A stretch of 58,600 bases of DNA from a virus (lineage: Duplodnaviria > Caudoviricetes): positions 1 to 58,600 of the IMG/VR virus record IMGVR_UViG_3300011114_000862; one strand, written 5' to 3'. Under the pieces are notes generated by a model. The model did no database searches and was not told the DNA's origin. It worked only from the letters and a program-made list of their open reading frames with translations. Made by a program: the position numbers and the translations under genes. This document shows positions 1 through 5,916 of this stretch, in pieces; position 1 is the stretch's first letter, and each line of letters begins with the position of its first letter.

Positions 1-150
1 GTTTAATACTCTTATTATACCTTGTTTAATACTCTTATTATACCTTGTTTAATACTCTTATTATACCTTGTTTAATACTCTTATTATACCTTGTTTAATA
101 CTCTTATTATACCTTGTTTAATACTCTTATTATACCTTGTTTAATACTCT
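1..150. repeat. Perfect 23-bp tandem array (GTTTAATACTCTTATTATACCTT x6.5), truncated by window start
   Basis: Identical units start at 1, 24, 47, 70, 93, 116, with a partial unit at 139-150; no spacers. Confidence 0.97.
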
Positions 151-176
151 ATTTTCTTGTCGTCTAAGGCGGTATA

Positions 177-205
177 AGAATACCACAGCACTGTATAATT
201 GTCAA
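177..205 (-). promoter_or_regulatory. Sigma70-type promoter pointing into the 23-bp array
   Basis: Minus strand TTGACA (205-200), 17 nt, TATTCT (182-177). Confidence 0.65.
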
Positions 206-232
206 TACCCCCAGTAAAACCTACATATTTCC

Positions 233-259
233 CACATAAATCACATAAATCACATAGAT
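233..259. repeat. 9-bp tandem repeat CACATAAAT x3 (third is CACATAGAT)
   Basis: Units at 233, 242, 251. Confidence 0.8.
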
Positions 260-269
260 TTGAAATTAT

Positions 270-277
270 TATAAATA
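270..277 (+). promoter_or_regulatory. T4-type late promoter TATAAATA
   Basis: Exact T4 late consensus, with no ORF downstream. Confidence 0.55.
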
Positions 278-300
278 ATAACATCTAAGATATTCATAGA

Positions 301-402
301 GCAGCACTTGAACTCTCCTACGGGACCAAGAGGTAACAATCTGACAGGGTAGACGAGATACTTTATATAATAACAAGAGGGAGTTAGTACGCGGTCTCCG
401 GC
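301..402 (+). ncRNA. Candidate structured, pseudoknotted ncRNA
   Basis: GC-richer island; AACTCTC (311-317) pairs with GGGAGTT (379-385); loop CGGGACC (321-327) pairs with GGTCTCCG (393-400); follows TATAAATA. Confidence 0.4.
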
Positions 403-571
403 TCAATAAAATCGTTGGTATAACAAGGTTATATCAGTAATCAGTCTAAGTGATAACAATACAGTTGTAGTTAATAAAGCAAAAGACCCCCTTAGTGGTC
501 TGATAGAAACTCTTTTCTAAAATCATATAGAATAGAGTGATTTTGTTGTATCATCATATATTCCTTTACGA

Positions 572-600
572 TTGACATACACAATAAATTGTGCTATTGT
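572..600 (+). promoter_or_regulatory. Sigma70-type promoter with palindrome in the spacer
   Basis: TTGACA (572-577), 17 nt, TATTGT (595-600); CACAAT-AA-ATTGTG at 580-593. Confidence 0.5.
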
Positions 601-612
601 TCGTCATGTAAT

Positions 613-1040
613 ACTTCGTGTATTACATTTTACATTTCACAATTCACTTCGTTATTATGTCAGTAAATATCTCATAAACTTCGTTATTCAATTATACCGA
701 GGTTTTACTTCGTGTATCTTCAAGTAATTTATATACTTACTTCGTTATACTGACAAATACTTAGTATTGGATTACAATGAAAGATTGGTCTTTAATGGTT
801 AGATATCAAATAACAAAAAGTATCATACCCTAGGGGGGTATAGTAATTCTAATCAATCGGAGCAGTTAACACTTCGTGTATGTTATCCATAAGGTATTCT
901 AATGCCCCTCACAGTTTGTGTTAGTATTAGAAAATATTATTATATCTAACAGTCCATTCTTAATTATCACATACCCTAGGGGGGTATGGTAATTCTAATC
1001 AAACAGTAGTGTGTATAAACTAGCACGAACACTTCGTTAT
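613..1040 (+). repeat. Seven dispersed ACTTCGTTAT / ACTTCGTGTAT motifs
   Basis: Copies at 613, 646, 678, 707, 739, 871, 1031, all in the same orientation. Confidence 0.85.
824..1002. repeat. 33-bp direct repeat pair CATACCCTAGGGGGGTATRGTAATTCTAATCAA with internal hairpin
   Basis: Copies at 824-856 and 970-1002 with one mismatch; ATACCC/GGGTAT stem. Confidence 0.9.
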
Positions 1041-1070
1041 TACAATTAAACAGTGGTGTTTAATTGTAAT
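1039..1070. other. Perfect 14-bp inverted repeat (hairpin or cruciform)
   Basis: ATTACAATTAAACA-GTGG-TGTTTAATTGTAAT. Confidence 0.85.
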
Positions 1071-1303
1071 TGACAGTTATATTGTATTGTTGATGATTGT
1101 TATTATAAACCGTTGGTGGTTATAAAAACGCGGGTCCCTTGTAAGCTATAAACCTTCACCTGAGAGAGTGTTAATATCAAAGACATTAAAAAAATTTTTC
1201 AGATTACAAAATCAACTAAAAAACCATTTTAGTATAAAAAAATTTTACAAGTAAAAAATCAAATTAAATATATAAAACTCAGGGCACAAACAACAAGAGA
1301 ATT

Positions 1304-1456
1304 ATGAAATTAGAGTTCGACGAATATGAGAGAGATATTCTCATAGAAACCATTCAACATAGGTTAGAGACAGATGAGGATTTAATTCTCTCAGAGAGTA
1401 GAAAGGACGAAATACAAGAACTACTTCGTAAAATAGAAGAAGATGAATACTTATGA
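1304..1456 (+). CDS. Small acidic hypothetical protein, 50 aa (not in ORF track)
   Basis: MKLEFDEYERDILIETIQHRLETDEDLILSESRKDEIQELLRKIEEDEYL*; purine-rich leader. Confidence 0.7.
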   Translation: MKLEFDEYERDILIETIQHRLETDEDLILSESRKDEIQELLRKIEEDEYL

Positions 1457-1604
1457 TGTATCAGTAAAGGGAAGAAAAGTTTTAACCGAGGTTGCATCAC
1501 ATAAACTTGAAGATGAATTAAAAATACTTCGAGGGATAGTATGGACCACGGGTGGATCTAATGAAGATATACAAGTCACAATAAATAATCCAACCACTAC
1601 TTGA
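1443..1604 (+). CDS. Small hypothetical protein, 53 aa (not in ORF track)
   Basis: MNTYDVSVKGRKVLTEVASHKLEDELKILRGIVWTTGGSNEDIQVTINNPTTT*; overlaps the preceding ORF's end. Confidence 0.65.
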   Translation: MNTYDVSVKGRKVLTEVASHKLEDELKILRGIVWTTGGSNEDIQVTINNPTTT

Positions 1605-1647
1605 CTTGGGGTGGTATAATATATTAGTAATACGAAAAAGAAAATTT

Positions 1648-2403
1648 ATGGCAAAAGGATTTACAGTAAAAGCAAAGGCACCTGAGGTAGCAAAATCTTC
1701 CGAGGGTGATTTCAATTTAGCAGAAGCAAAGGAAAGAATTCGAGGGAAGTCAATAGTATTTTGTCTTCCTGGTCGTGGGGTATCATATACTTATTTGAAA
1801 AGTTTTGTTCAATTATGTTTTGATATAGTACAATCAGGAGCAAGCATTCAGATTTCACAAGATTATTCATCGATGGTAAATTTTGCCCGATGTAAGTGTT
1901 TAGGAGCAAATGTTCTCAGAGGACCTAAGCAGAAACCTTGGGATGGGAAATTACAGTATGATTATCAATTATGGATTGATAGTGATATTGTATTTGATAC
2001 CGAGAAGTTTTATCGTCTTGTAGCTATGGATAAAGACATTGCAGCAGGATGGTATTGTACAGAAGATGGACACACTACTTCAGTTGCTCATTGGTTGGAA
2101 GAAGAGGATTTTAGAGGTAATGGAGGAGTAATGAATCATGAAACCTTAGATAGTATTCAGAAGAGACGGAAGCCATTTACAGTAGATTATACTGGATTTG
2201 GATGGGTACTTATTAAGAATGGTGTATTTGAGAATCTAGAATATCCTTGGTTTGCACCTAAGATGCAAGTCTTTGAATCTGGTGAGGTTCAAGATATGTG
2301 TGGAGAGGATGTATCATTCTGTTTAGATGCAAAGGATGCAGGATATGAAATTTGGTGTGACCCACAGATTCGTGTAGGACATGAGAAGACTAGAGTACTT
2401 TGA
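1648..2403 (+). CDS. Putative GT-A (GT2-like) glycosyltransferase-fold protein
   Basis: Start reassigned to ATG 1648 (MAKGF...); DxD motif WIDSD, VDYTGFGWVLI, GEDVSFC, VGHEK. Confidence 0.7.
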   Translation: MAKGFTVKAKAPEVAKSSEGDFNLAEAKERIRGKSIVFCLPGRGVSYTYLKSFVQLCFDIVQSGASIQISQDYSSMVNFARCKCLGANVLRGPKQKPWDGKLQYDYQLWIDSDIVFDTEKFYRLVAMDKDIAAGWYCTEDGHTTSVAHWLEEEDFRGNGGVMNHETLDSIQKRRKPFTVDYTGFGWVLIKNGVFENLEYPWFAPKMQVFESGEVQDMCGEDVSFCLDAKDAGYEIWCDPQIRVGHEKTRVL

Positions 2404-2530
2404 AGTTGTTACACAATTTAATATGAGTATTATCGTCTAAACGAAATATATCTCATTATATCTTGTTATAATTTCAAATAATGTTAAAAGATATAACTTT
2501 GAAATTATTCAAACTACTGATATAATACTT

Positions 2531-2577
2531 AGATAAATCTCTAAGGAATTTCGAAAGAGTTTTCTTAGAGATTTTCT
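2531..2577 (+). other. Long hairpin with GAAA tetraloop
   Basis: AAATCTCTAAGGAATTTC-GAAA-GAGTTTTCTTAGAGATTT, with G-U pairs and one mismatch. Confidence 0.7.
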
Positions 2578-2587
2578 ATTATGAGAT

Positions 2588-2665
2588 TTATGTGCGTTCT
2601 TATGAACCTTATGAACCTTATGAACCTTATGAACCTTATGAACCTTATGAACCTTATGTGCGTTC
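2588..2665. repeat. TTATGAACC x6 flanked by 12-bp direct repeats TTATGTGCGTTC
   Basis: Flanks at 2588-2599 and 2654-2665; six perfect 9-mers at 2600-2653. Confidence 0.95.
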
Positions 2666-2692
2666 CTAACCTTAAAACACTGGAGAAGACAA

Positions 2693-2821
2693 ATGAACAA
2701 AAAGGGATTAAAACTTGATATTATTACAAAGAATACTAGGCAAGGTAGTGGTAAGAATACTAAATATGCATCAACTAGTAGAAACAAATCGAGAAAAAAA
2801 TATAGAGGTCAAGGACGATAG
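2693..2821 (+). CDS. Small very basic protein, 42 aa, ending KKYRGQGR (not in ORF track)
   Basis: GGAG SD at 2682; MNKKGLKLDIITKNTRQGSGKNTKYASTSRNKSRKKYRGQGR*; terminator follows. Confidence 0.8.
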   Translation: MNKKGLKLDIITKNTRQGSGKNTKYASTSRNKSRKKYRGQGR

Positions 2822-2850
2822 CAATATTTAAATCTAACTATTAAAATATG

Positions 2851-2878
2851 AACCCATCTTAACTAGATGGGTTTTTTT
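2851..2878 (+). terminator. Intrinsic terminator
   Basis: AACCCATCT-TAACT-AGATGGGTT plus T-tract. Confidence 0.85.
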
Positions 2879-2915
2879 AATTAAATAAATAACAAATATA
2901 GGAGTTTTATGTAAA

Positions 2916-3257
2916 TTGGATAAATTCTCAATGGGGACTCATCTACTATTAGAAATATATGATGTTGATCATACACTTCTAAATTTACCATCCCCACTGC
3001 TAAGAGTACTGCATGATAGTATTACTCGTGCTAAAATGACAATTTTGAATACTTTTATTCATAGTTTTGATCCTCAAGGATTAACTATAGTAATTGTTCT
3101 TTCAGAAAGTCATTGCTCTTTACATTCTTGGCCTGAACGTGGATGTGTAGCAATTGATGTATATACTTGTGGAGAAGGTAATCCAAAAATTATTGCAATT
3201 GAATTGTTAAAGTATTTCAATTCGAATAATTATCATCTTAGAGAATTAGAAAGATAG
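2916..3257 (+). CDS. speD: S-adenosylmethionine decarboxylase proenzyme family (pyruvoyl-dependent)
   Basis: GTHLLLEIY, HSFDPQGLT, self-cleavage motif LSESH, HSWPE, DVYTCG. Confidence 0.92.
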   Translation: MDKFSMGTHLLLEIYDVDHTLLNLPSPLLRVLHDSITRAKMTILNTFIHSFDPQGLTIVIVLSESHCSLHSWPERGCVAIDVYTCGEGNPKIIAIELLKYFNSNNYHLRELER

Positions 3258-3264
3258 ATAGTGT

Positions 3265-3285
3265 AAGGAGATGGAACCTCCTTTT
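3265..3285 (+). terminator. Hairpin / possible weak terminator after speD
   Basis: AAGGAG-ATGGAAC-CTCCTT followed by TT. Confidence 0.45.
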
Positions 3286-3325
3286 CTAAAAGTTCTTAAT
3301 ATAGAACCTATTAAGAGAGATTACA

Positions 3326-3589
3326 ATGGCAAATTTACCCGTAGATAGAGATTCAAATTACATGAAGAGTATGTGGGGAACCACTAGACTAATAACTGAT
3401 TATTATACAGATGATAAGAAAGTTATTCAGGAAGTTTTACATGATCTTGCTCCTCCTCATAAATTATATAAACAGAATGAACTTCATGAAAAAATTCGTA
3501 ATGATGTAGATTATGATGATTGGGAATATGGTACTGAACCAGTTTATAATATTAACACTAAATCAGATAAAACTACAATAATAATGTAA
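3326..3589 (+). CDS. Hypothetical phage protein, 87 aa
   Basis: ATG with AGAGAG leader; lies between speD and gp25. Confidence 0.8.
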   Translation: MANLPVDRDSNYMKSMWGTTRLITDYYTDDKKVIQEVLHDLAPPHKLYKQNELHEKIRNDVDYDDWEYGTEPVYNINTKSDKTTIIM

Positions 3590-3622
3590 ATAAATATTAT
3601 TGATTCAACTCAATTATAAATA

Positions 3623-4024
3623 ATGGCACTTCGGATCTCAAGATCTTTTAAAGATATTAGTTTATCTTTTACTAGACATCCAATTACAAATGATATTTCT
3701 ATCTTGAAAAATGAAGATGCCATTAAAAAATCAGTTATGAATTTGGTGAAAACACAACTAGGTGAAAGATTTTTTAATAGTATATTGGGATCTTCAGTAT
3801 CGAATTCACTTTTCGAATTACATTCAGATGAGATCTCTATTATTTTAGATACTGAGATTAAAACTTTATTAGAAAATTTTGAATCTAGAGTTAAATTACT
3901 TGAATTTAGTATTACTTCCACTGAAGATGCACATGAGTTAGAAGTTTATATCTCATATGAGATTATTGGACAACCAATTCCTACTCAAAATATAGAGTTT
4001 ATTTTACAGCCAACTAGAGTTTAA
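3623..4024 (+). CDS. gp25: Baseplate wedge subunit gp25
   Basis: FKDISLSFTRHPITND, AIKKSVMNLV, GERFF, ESRV motifs; upstream of gp6. Confidence 0.9.
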   Translation: MALRISRSFKDISLSFTRHPITNDISILKNEDAIKKSVMNLVKTQLGERFFNSILGSSVSNSLFELHSDEISIILDTEIKTLLENFESRVKLLEFSITSTEDAHELEVYISYEIIGQPIPTQNIEFILQPTRV

Positions 4025-4026
4025 TA

Positions 4027-5916
4027 ATGTCTCTCAATCAATTTACAAATTTAGATTTTAATAATCTAAAAACTCAACTTAAAGATTATTTAAGATCTAA
4101 TAGTAATTTCACTGATTTTGATTTTGAAGGTTCAAATTTCTCTGTGCTGGTTGATATATTAGCATATAATAGTTACATAAATTCATTTAATGCCAATATG
4201 GCAGTCAATGAATCTTTTTTAGATAGTGCAACTTTAAGAGAAAATGTAGTTTCATTAGTTAGGAATATTGGATATGTTCCTAGATCTAAACGATCTGCAG
4301 TTGCAAAAGTTTCTTTTACAGTTGATGTATCTACATTTGAATATAGACCTAAGACGATTACACTCAAATCTGGAGTTGTAGCATTAGGTTCAGTTCAAAA
4401 TGGAAATTATATATTTTCAATTCCCGATGATATTGTACAGAAAGTAGATAATGATGGTATTGCTTATTTTACAGATATTTCAATATATGAGGGATCACTA
4501 CTAACAAAGACTTTTGTAGTGGATAATACAAATCCTAGGCAGACATTTATACTTCCAAATCCAAGTATTGATACTACAACAATTAGAGTTTCGGTTACAG
4601 GAACATCTAAAGAAAAGTATGAATTATATCAAAATATATTTAAAGTAGATTCAAATTCAAAATTATTTTTAATTCAAGAAATTGAAGATGAAAAATATCA
4701 AATTCTTTTTGGTGATAATATTATAGGTAAAAAACCAATAAATGGAAGTTCAATATTAACTTCATATATTGTAACCAATGGTGCTTCTGCAAATGGTGCA
4801 TATAGATTCACTTTTTCAGGAATATTGAAAGATAATACTGACACAACCGTAACTAGTGGAATATCCATACTGCAGACATTATCTTCAGCAGCAAATGGAG
4901 ATGATATTGAATCCACAGAATCTGTTAAATATCTTGCACCTAGAGTATATTCATCACAATATAGAGCAGTAACTGCAAATGATTATAAAGGACTTATACC
5001 ATTCTTATTCTCAAATGTAGAGTCTGTTGTTGCATATGGAGGAGAGGAATTAAATCCTCCAGAATATGGAAAGGTATATATTGCAATTAAACCTAGACAA
5101 GGATATTTCATTTCAGAGATTACTAAAACAGATATTAAGAGAAAATTAAAAGATTACTCTATTGCAGGAATTAAACCTGAAATAGTTGATTTAAAATATC
5201 TATATGTAGAGTTAGATATTACTGCATATTATAATTCAAATCTAACATCATCTTCGGCAAATGTTATAACTAAGGTTCGCAATACTATAGACGCATATAG
5301 CAATTCAACTGATGTAAATAGTTTTGCAGGAAGATTTAAATATAGTAAAGTTTGTGGATTAATTGATAATTCAGATATATCAATCACATCAAACATAACA
5401 AAAGTTAAAATGAGAAGAAATCTAATACCAACTTTAAATAAAGTTGCAATATATGAATTATGTTTTGGAAATGAATTTCATGTATCTAAGAAAAATTCAA
5501 TCGATGGTAATGGATACAATATTAAGTCAAGTGGATTTACAATTGATGGAAATCTCAATACTCTGTATATGAGTGATGTACCAATAAATAGTACTACTGG
5601 AACAGTATTCTTTTTTAAACTTGAAGGTGGAATTCCAGTAACAGTAATTGCAAATGCAGGAACTGTTTATTATCCAAATGGTGAGATTATATTAAATGCA
5701 ATAACATTTACAAGTTCTGTAAGAGAAAATGGAATTGAAGTTCAGGCAATTCCTGAGTCAAATGATGTCATTGGAACTAAGGATACATACTTAGAAATAG
5801 ATAATTCAAATATTAATATAACTACTATTGAAGATATCATATCATCCGGAGAAAATCTAGCCGCAACTAGATATATCACAACATCAAGTTACACTAACGA
5901 AAATTATATAAGATAA
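4027..5916 (+). CDS. gp6: Baseplate wedge subunit gp6
   Basis: FTDFDFEGSN, ESFLDSATLRENVVS, QYRAVTANDY, PPEYGKVYIAIKP. Confidence 0.93.
   Translation: MSLNQFTNLDFNNLKTQLKDYLRSNSNFTDFDFEGSNFSVLVDILAYNSYINSFNANMAVNESFLDSATLRENVVSLVRNIGYVPRSKRSAVAKVSFTVDVSTFEYRPKTITLKSGVVALGSVQNGNYIFSIPDDIVQKVDNDGIAYFTDISIYEGSLLTKTFVVDNTNPRQTFILPNPSIDTTTIRVSVTGTSKEKYELYQNIFKVDSNSKLFLIQEIEDEKYQILFGDNIIGKKPINGSSILTSYIVTNGASANGAYRFTFSGILKDNTDTTVTSGISILQTLSSAANGDDIESTESVKYLAPRVYSSQYRAVTANDYKGLIPFLFSNVESVVAYGGEELNPPEYGKVYIAIKPRQGYFISEITKTDIKRKLKDYSIAGIKPEIVDLKYLYVELDITAYYNSNLTSSSANVITKVRNTIDAYSNSTDVNSFAGRFKYSKVCGLIDNSDISITSNITKVKMRRNLIPTLNKVAIYELCFGNEFHVSKKNSIDGNGYNIKSSGFTIDGNLNTLYMSDVPINSTTGTVFFFKLEGGIPVTVIANAGTVYYPNGEIILNAITFTSSVRENGIEVQAIPESNDVIGTKDTYLEIDNSNINITTIEDIISSGENLAATRYITTSSYTNENYIR

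Follow-up and report, generated by a model that had tools for sequence, protein, structure and literature searches.

Iteron origins such as RK2 oriV, P1 oriR, and lambda ori are built from units of about 17 to 22 bp at a spacing of about 22, and T4 oriE, with its iterons, lies among the baseplate genes. Asymmetric operator arrays, such as Mu repressor O1 to O3 and the Lrp sites at pap and ilvIH, spread short asymmetric sites over several hundred bp. RNAs of the CsrB/RsmZ type carry many copies of a short word, GGA, between unrelated linkers; arrays like the type III antitoxin ToxI consist of tandem, near-identical units of about 34 to 45 nt; and the promoter-early stem-loop (PeSL) cassettes of T4-type phages, which go back to Arbiol and colleagues in 2010, are said to be units of about 50 nt dispersed between open reading frames (ORFs). 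Here we describe an array of the word ACTTCGT, with the core TTCGT, at positions 600 to 1070 of IMG/VR record IMGVR_UViG_3300011114_000862, which comes from a T4-like cyanomyovirus. The whole record of 58.6 kb (58,600 nt; CheckV completeness 31%) was analyzed and is called the window below. The array is real, conserved, and under selection, and it is a single locus per genome in one subgroup of these phages; we tentatively read it as a cis-acting set of docking sites for one sequence-specific protein, read on DNA in the manner of operators or iterons, that would gate the promoters embedded in it.

The array has in common with iteron origins its co-oriented, regular direct repeats (8 TTCGT at 600 to 1035 in the window and 8 to 16 in relatives), its restriction to a single locus per genome, and, in relatives, the position of the repeats between DnaA boxes and an AT/GT-rich stretch; it differs in a unit of only about 7 to 10 nt on a lattice of about 31.5 nt, in having no Rep-like gene recognized by family or fold searches, and, in the window, in having no DnaA box. 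Like the operator arrays, it is made of short asymmetric sites that extend over several hundred bp, stand nearly three helical turns apart around promoters, and overlap promoter spacers, but its copies are all direct and reach 500 nt upstream of a conserved promoter block. We know of no use of Lrp by cyanobacteria. With the CsrB/RsmZ RNAs it shares many copies of a short word, unrelated linkers, the placement of some copies in loops, and turnover between relatives; its word would be UUCGU and not GGA, and it has neither a terminator-like site nor an Rfam match. PeSL cassettes resemble it in combining sigma-70-like promoters and stem-loops in a hyperplastic small-ORF region, whereas the array copies share only 7 to 10 nt, have no ORFs between them, and are found once in a 284-kb genome. 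Unlike ToxI-like arrays, it has unrelated linkers and is not a tandem array. ACTTCGT also resembles what we take to be the 13-bp arm of loxP, but the array copies are direct and do not form inverted pairs. Strictly taken, the array belongs neither to the iteron origins nor to the curated sponge RNAs and behaves like a site array of either kind. Full-text literature searches on the motif and on cyanophage origins, DnaA boxes, and intergenic elements returned no published description of such an array.

RESULTS

A co-oriented array in the window

The window contains 11 ACTTCGT, whereas 100 dinucleotide shuffles gave a mean of 2.26 (standard deviation 1.37, maximum 6), and none of them reached 11. 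Seven of the 11 lie on the + strand within about 430 nt, at 613, 646, 678, 707, 739, 871, and 1031, the first five being separated, from start to start, by 33, 32, 29, and 32 nt. These co-oriented copies and their 29- to 33-nt spacing had been noted at the same coordinates in the original prediction, made by a model from the letters of this DNA alone, and the enrichment that it presupposed is borne out by the shuffles. A further TTCGT (GTTCGTC) at 600 to 604 on the + strand was missing from that list, and another + strand ACTTCGT is found at 1423, within a small ORF (1304 to 1456). The long form of the motif, ACTTCGTGTAT, was found three times against 0.03 expected (it includes copy 4 at 707 to 717 and copy 6 at 871 to 881); the remaining four array copies read ACTTCGTTAT (copy 2, 646 to 655; copy 3, 678 to 687; copy 5, 739 to 748; copy 7, 1031 to 1040; all on the + strand). 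As predicted, the linkers are unrelated, and Tandem Repeats Finder sees no tandem array of about 31 nt at 600 to 1070.

The array in related viruses

A scan of IMG/VR for the motif alone (three ACTTCGT 18 to 32 nt apart) matched mostly tandem repeats of giant viruses and others; together with a reading of the flanks, it yielded six low-GC loci (L018, L022, L032, L058, L098, and L113) with NTTCGT words, unrelated linkers, and C/G-run elements. Five of these (L018, L022, L032, L098, and L113) encode downstream homologs of the glycosyltransferase, gp25, and the first small ORF of the window (orf1304), and mostly of its second small ORF (orf1443) and speD too (47 to 90% amino acid identity); because loci found by the motif encode homologs of the window's downstream genes, the array is syntenic. 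L058 has the motifs without the downstream homologs and was excluded from all counts. Two other candidates were set aside: a gap in the P-SSM2 annotation 5' of the glycosyltransferase gene has five TTCGT in 300 nt but looks coding and does not resemble the array, and a scan for a C/G-run element followed by TTCGT returned 28 unrelated loci.

A second sample consisted of 80 loci selected by the glycosyltransferase protein alone (81 to 90% amino acid identity; 522,760 nt). From -1250 to -250 of the glycosyltransferase gene, TTCGT has a density of 0.78 to 1.24 per 250 nt on the + strand, against about 0.1 to 0.4 elsewhere; on the - strand the same bins hold 0.14 to 0.32 per 250 nt. In the 52 loci with at least 1,300 nt upstream, counts between -1300 and -300 are bimodal, with 8 to 14 copies in 10 loci and 0 to 6 in the other 42, and the reverse complement never exceeds 3. 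Ten of 52 loci thus have the array in syntenic position with its strand kept, and an eleventh array (L159, 14 copies) is displaced by an inserted ORF; the conservation in relatives whose lack was to count against the original prediction is present. The complete relative G001 (284,050 nt) has 215 TTCGT on the forward strand and 214 on the reverse strand, and its densest 600 nt, with 13 copies, is at the syntenic place, any other such stretch holding at most 5. Two other near-complete relatives have no array.

Motif, lattice, and selection

Motif statistics were drawn from 163 TTCGT copies in 13 phages. The consensus is a (61%), C (52%), TTCGT, a base other than A in nearly all copies (A, 3%), and W W; the information extends from about position -2 to about +8 (about 7 to 10 nt), with nothing beyond. 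Spacings between adjacent copies are most often 25 to 35 nt (57/150). Over all pair distances up to 130 nt, the best in-phase period is 31.5 nt (C = 0.184), a value that none of 500 random placements reaches at that period; the global maximum is beaten in 0.2%. The spacing of about three helical turns that had been read from the window therefore recurs as a lattice of about 31.5 nt across the clade, though with a half-step near 15.5 nt. The periodicity of AA/TT has a weak peak at 10.75 (z = 2.9), and its peaks at 24 to 26 nt are probably an artifact of the shuffle null.

Motif columns are 95% identical in the pair L178/L198, compared with 72% for other columns, and 11 of 13 copies are in register; the corresponding values are 78% versus 38% for L155/L156 and 82% versus 61% for L160/L156. 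In distant pairs, copy number, strand, and place are kept while individual copies turn over, 2 to 3 of 8 being in register. With its motif kept above the linkers and its copies turning over, the array evolves like a cluster of binding sites, unlike a decaying repeat.

Promoter-like sites and hairpins of the array

Directly before the array, on the + strand at 572 to 600, is the sigma-70-like promoter TTGACA-17-TATTGT of the original prediction, with TG before the -10 hexamer; it is a consensus match only (10/12), with a predicted start near A606, and the extra TTCGT at 600 begins on the final base of its -10 hexamer. Both predicted hairpins were also found on the + strand. A perfect 9-bp hairpin, ATGTAATAC-TTCGT-GTATTACAT, at 606 to 628 contains copy 1 (613 to 623) and has TTCGT as its loop, and a perfect 14-bp hairpin (arms 1039 to 1052 and 1057 to 1070) closes the array; the latter had been said to abut the last motif and actually begins inside copy 7, which overlaps its start. 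The inner AAACAG/CTGTTT of this hairpin is recognizable in about 6 of the 12 listed relatives, and the outer stems differ. Two copies of a 33-nt direct repeat, CATACCCTAGGGGGGTATAGTAATTCTAATCAA, with a C-run/G-run mini-hairpin (ATACCC/GGGTAT) lie at 824 to 856 and, 97% identical, at 970 to 1002 on the + strand; C/G-run elements like this one recur within the arrays of relatives.

Nine promoter-like sites with a perfect TTGACA lie inside arrays, and six of the nine have TTCGT in the spacer, in varying register. We rejected the motif as a fixed promoter element: it takes no constant register to the -35 and -10, and the other small ORFs have none upstream. Just 5' of the array in L178, L198, L113, L166, and L018 is a 50-aa ORF (MTNELNRDLM...) that the window lacks and whose end is at the first TTCGT copy; an inverted repeat, TGTGCCAC-N-CTGGCACA, and a TG-extended -10 lie before this ORF. 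In L160, at about -780 from the glycosyltransferase start, the palindrome TGTACACAGTACTGTGTACTA directly follows a TTCGT copy, and similar palindromes occur in L155, L156, and L161. Inside it, AGTACTGTGTACT fits RGTAC-N3-DGTWCB, which we take to be the cyanobacterial LexA-box consensus.

DnaA boxes

The word TTTTCCACA, given as the cyanobacterial DnaA box in PMC4674748, occurs as 48 perfect copies in the 80 loci, compared with about 4 expected at uniform composition. Eight of the 11 array-bearing loci (L155, L156, L159, L160, L161, L166, L167, and L218) hold nearly all of them, as clusters of three to eight boxes of both orientations just 5' of the array, and the incomplete locus L162 has two. 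Some boxes abut a motif copy directly, as TGTGGAAAA-CTA-TTCGT. G001 has 13 perfect boxes, 5 at the array and 4 at 239 kb (239,066 to 239,121); the latter cluster is flanked by a promoter and by a GIY-YIG (Seg-like) endonuclease gene on the - strand, and it has no TTCGT array. In L158, four one-mismatch variants, TGTGGAGAA, stand before a short GIY-YIG-like ORF, read from sequence only. The array as a copy of a host oriC was rejected: the DnaA-box-plus-motif word had 45 scattered matches in 185,579 prokaryote genomes, none of them cyanobacterial.

The conserved block and the two small ORFs

Alignment with relatives delimits, directly 3' of the array, a conserved noncoding block (1070 to 1303, + strand). 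In the window it comprises TTGACAGTTAT (1070 to 1080), a GT/AT-rich stretch (1076 to 1107), AACCGTTGG (1108 to 1116), TATAAAAACG (1121 to 1130), GGGTCCCTTGTAAGCTATAAACC (1132 to 1154), AAAAAAATTTTTC (1188 to 1200), and ATATATAAAAC (1268 to 1278). Across relatives the order is TTGACAGTTAT, the GT/AT-rich stretch, AACCGWTG, a C-run (in most), TATAAAAAC, CCCT-TAA(G/C)CTA(Y)AA, AAAAAAATTT, and TATATAA, the last a box that precedes the start codon of orf1304 (ATG at 1304) by about 25 nt. When the block of L156 was used as a blastn query, 58 cultured-phage records were matched, nearly all of them cyanomyoviruses; the best matches are unannotated intergenic DNA 5' of baseplate modules (S-SRM01, DSL-LC03, Bellamy, P-SSM7, Sf-FS3, and ACG-2014d). 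TTCGT occurs three times just 5' of the block in S-SRM01 and is lacking in S-SCSM2R, where the block is present. At all 14 loci with the block recognized at the expected place (window included), TTCGT lies upstream of it, and the 12 of these loci with the full 700 nt upstream have 8 to 16 copies in that stretch. The window's clade seems to have amplified a word that existed as a few copies beside a widespread putative promoter/leader block. Small hypothetical coding sequences are annotated over the block in L235 (3808 to 4026, S-SCSM2R_94) and L297 (1480 to 1581, PSSM7_080); these gene calls may be spurious, and the DNA sequence of the block is conserved in many cyanomyoviruses.

The first gene after the block, orf1304 (1304 to 1456, + strand), encodes an acidic protein of 50 aa, and orf1443 (1443 to 1604, + strand) encodes one of 53 aa with a predicted beta-beta-alpha-beta fold in a confident model (predicted local distance difference test, 89). 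Both go with the array: orf1304 homologs are present in 9 of 11 array-bearing loci versus 3 of 41 array-free ones, and orf1443 homologs in 10 of 11 versus 0 of 41. In L159, the insert between the block and orf1443 is an ORF with an HNH-type motif (IDHIDSNKLNNHAENLRW, by eye) that replaces orf1304 and shifts the array by about 700 nt. In S-SRM01 the first gene after the block is gp185 (L152 4779 to 4955), annotated as a DNA-binding domain protein, and L187 is alike; these two phages have only two to three TTCGT, and the protein, AbrB/SpoVT-like by eye, is unrelated to those of orf1304 and orf1443.

Genomic setting

Downstream of the array the gene order is the two small ORFs, a glycosyltransferase-like protein (1648 to 2403, phrog_1574), speD (2916 to 3257), and the baseplate genes gp25 (3623 to 4024) and gp6, all rightward (+ strand). 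The downstream genes match Synechococcus and Prochlorococcus T4-like cyanomyoviruses at 73 to 77% DNA identity in 97 records (S-SRM01, P-SSM2, S-SKS1, S-SSM7, and others). A blastn search with window 1 to 3300 gave no cultured-phage match 5' of base ~1600, and one with 560 to 1310 against cultured phages found no match to the array. ORFs in window 1 to 1300 do not exceed 51 aa, and the array sits in an ORF-free control region between a small-ORF (early-type) region and the baseplate operon. ARAGORN found no tRNA in the window, and exact-word scans with the first hairpin, the 33-nt repeat, and a 23-nt tandem unit found no close kin of it.

That 23-nt unit, GTTTAATACTCTTATTATACCTT, makes up the start of the contig (1 to 150) in 6.5 perfect copies, and the contig end is probably an assembly break at this repeat; L178 has a word similar to it, inside a duplicated unit of about 47 nt, at the equivalent relative position. 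Tandem Repeats Finder also reports 2.7 copies of CACATAAAT at 233 to 256, and window 213 to 570 has no detectable similarity to the fetched relatives. CCGCCTTAGACGACAAGAA follows a sigma-70-like promoter, TTGACA-17-TATTCT with TG, that points leftward on the - strand at 177 to 205 (within 146 to 222); this promoter-plus-leader cassette recurs in L155, L156, L166, and L178, and it is found at 239.2 kb of G001, facing the GIY-YIG gene. In the gap between glycosyltransferase and speD (2509 to 2787), translations are simple repeats, HKVHKV... on one strand and MNLMNL... on the other; such repeats on both strands indicate a short tandem DNA repeat there.

DISCUSSION

We infer protein binding, DNA rather than RNA as the target, and transcription control as the output, and we hold this reading with some reserve. 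A phage or host protein would recognize aCTTCGT plus a non-A base and W W on the strand of the flanking genes. Cooperative occupancy of phased, double-stranded sites would cover the sigma-70-type promoters that abut the array or lie inside it, and this cover would gate rightward transcription into the block and the operon orf1304-orf1443-glycosyltransferase-speD-gp25-gp6. With TTCGT within promoter spacers, the bound protein would sit on the promoters themselves. The lattice of three helical turns, the promoter-spacer copies, and the adjoining DnaA boxes favor DNA. Synteny, lattice, and motif conservation strengthen the original prediction of a protein-binding array; the two forms it had offered, a CsrB-type RNA and phased initiator-binding iterons, are not told apart.

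Several observations weigh against binding on DNA as an operator-like array. The harmonic near 15.5 nt and the lack of a 10.5-nt signal weaken the argument from a single helix face, which is not clean. TTCGT lies in the loop of perfect hairpins of at least 7 bp in 20 of 163 copies versus 5.3% expected (2.3-fold, p = 4e-4), and binding to duplex DNA does not require display in a loop. Promoter-like sites are not enriched in 1 to 4200 (31 versus 25.8 ± 5.1 in shuffles). The window, whose left flank is missing, has no perfect DnaA box and 26 one-mismatch matches versus 28.8 expected; the boxes may moreover be a separate regulatory device, since the second, array-less cluster in G001 suggests that they may be independent of the array. 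The co-occurrence of orf1304 and orf1443 with the array is an association among kin and may reflect shared descent. Neither ORF has a Pfam or PHROG family, both proteins are acidic or neutral, and the orf1443 model has no fold match in the PDB below E = 0.5.

The strongest rival, possible but in our view rather unlikely, has the array act as RNA: a noncoding transcript, a long leader, or a 3' untranslated region starting from about 606 whose UUCGU words titrate an RNA-binding protein or RNase or mark processing. As this would have it, every copy lies on the same strand as the flanking genes, and a transcript from the promoter would begin with the perfect 9-bp hairpin. Beyond the loop enrichment just given, the 5-mers commonest in loops are sub-words of the motif; L178, L198, and L113 hold copies in hairpins of 10 to 13 bp whose stems differ and whose loop word is kept, and in L178 and L198 an early copy is held in hairpins of 10 to 11 bp with different stem sequences. 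Copy number and strand are kept despite the turnover of copies, as in sponge RNAs. On the other side, 131 of the 163 copies neither fall in the loop of a perfect hairpin of at least 7 bp nor touch its stem, no terminator-like site was found at the array end near 1070, and strong promoter-like sites with TTCGT in their spacers lie mid-array in several relatives. Rfam gave no match anywhere in the window at gathering scores and, at the E-value threshold, only two chance matches to microRNA models, both on the 14-bp hairpin. A search of sequencing runs turned up no RNA run, a result that does not bear on expression. Folding of the strands, unpaired probabilities, and G.T counts do not decide between DNA and RNA: the + strand folds better than shuffles (z = -4.0), but the - strand does so equally well (z = -3.9); the unpaired probability of TTCGT versus the rest is 0.50 versus 0.41 on the + strand and 0.60 versus 0.44 on the - strand; and stem appositions on the + strand are 5 G.T versus 9 A.C, with no G.T excess.

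It is doubtful that the array supplies the iterons of a phage replication origin, at which a transcript from the embedded promoters may prime synthesis, as transcripts do at T4 oriF and oriG. The order in relatives would then be DnaA boxes, TTCGT iterons, the promoter-like TTGACAGTTAT, and a GT/AT-rich stretch for unwinding. Such an origin would account for the DnaA-box clusters just 5' of the arrays in 8 of 11 relatives and for one such locus in a complete genome, and the combination of DnaA boxes, direct repeats, AT/GT-rich DNA, and a C-run resembles the architecture of iteron origins. T4-type phages load their own helicase without DnaA, however, and DnaA boxes are lacking in the window. The conserved word spans about 7 to 10 nt, not 17 to 22, and no initiator-like gene was recognized in the Pfam, PHROG, or orf1443 fold searches. 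The cumulative GC skew of G001 rises monotonically, with no turn at the locus, and its second DnaA cluster, by the GIY-YIG gene, has no array. A single theta origin has been predicted for the cyanomyovirus Syn9 (PMC2984593), so a defined origin would not be foreign to cyanomyoviruses; CTTCGT is not clustered in Syn9.

Just as speculatively, a hub of 8 to 16 sites and, in most members, host DnaA boxes could recruit DnaA and a phage factor, fire an origin, and couple replication to late transcription. Late promoters of T4 are activated from DNA ends or nicks in the nontranscribed strand, where the clamp is loaded; we know of no replication-coupling hub of this kind described for T4-type phages. 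Finally, functionless debris, whether a decayed tandem duplication of about 31 nt, of which the 31.5-nt lattice could be a relic, or emptied promoter/stem-loop cassettes of a hyperplastic region in which relatives carry many tiny ORFs with their own promoters and in which promoter-like and hairpin elements are interspersed, is very improbable, as motif columns stand well above linker columns in three pairs, arrays persist where individual copies can no longer be aligned, the strand asymmetry is absolute, and Tandem Repeats Finder sees no array at 600 to 1070. The probability left after the four readings (operator-like array, RNA, origin, and debris) we assign to an explanation not considered here.

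T4-like cyanophages, for which the timing of gene expression is unsettled and no replication origin has been defined, kill a large share of ocean Prochlorococcus and Synechococcus. In the account of PMC2984593, these phages are without MotA/AsiA and Alt/Mod. The locus is a concrete place to seek the missing regulator or an origin, where the early-type small-ORF region meets the baseplate operon. Should the array work at the RNA level, it would amount to a protein-sponge-like RNA in phages of picocyanobacteria, a host group that to our knowledge is without CsrA. Because the block is present in many cultured cyanomyoviruses, parts of the question are testable at the bench.

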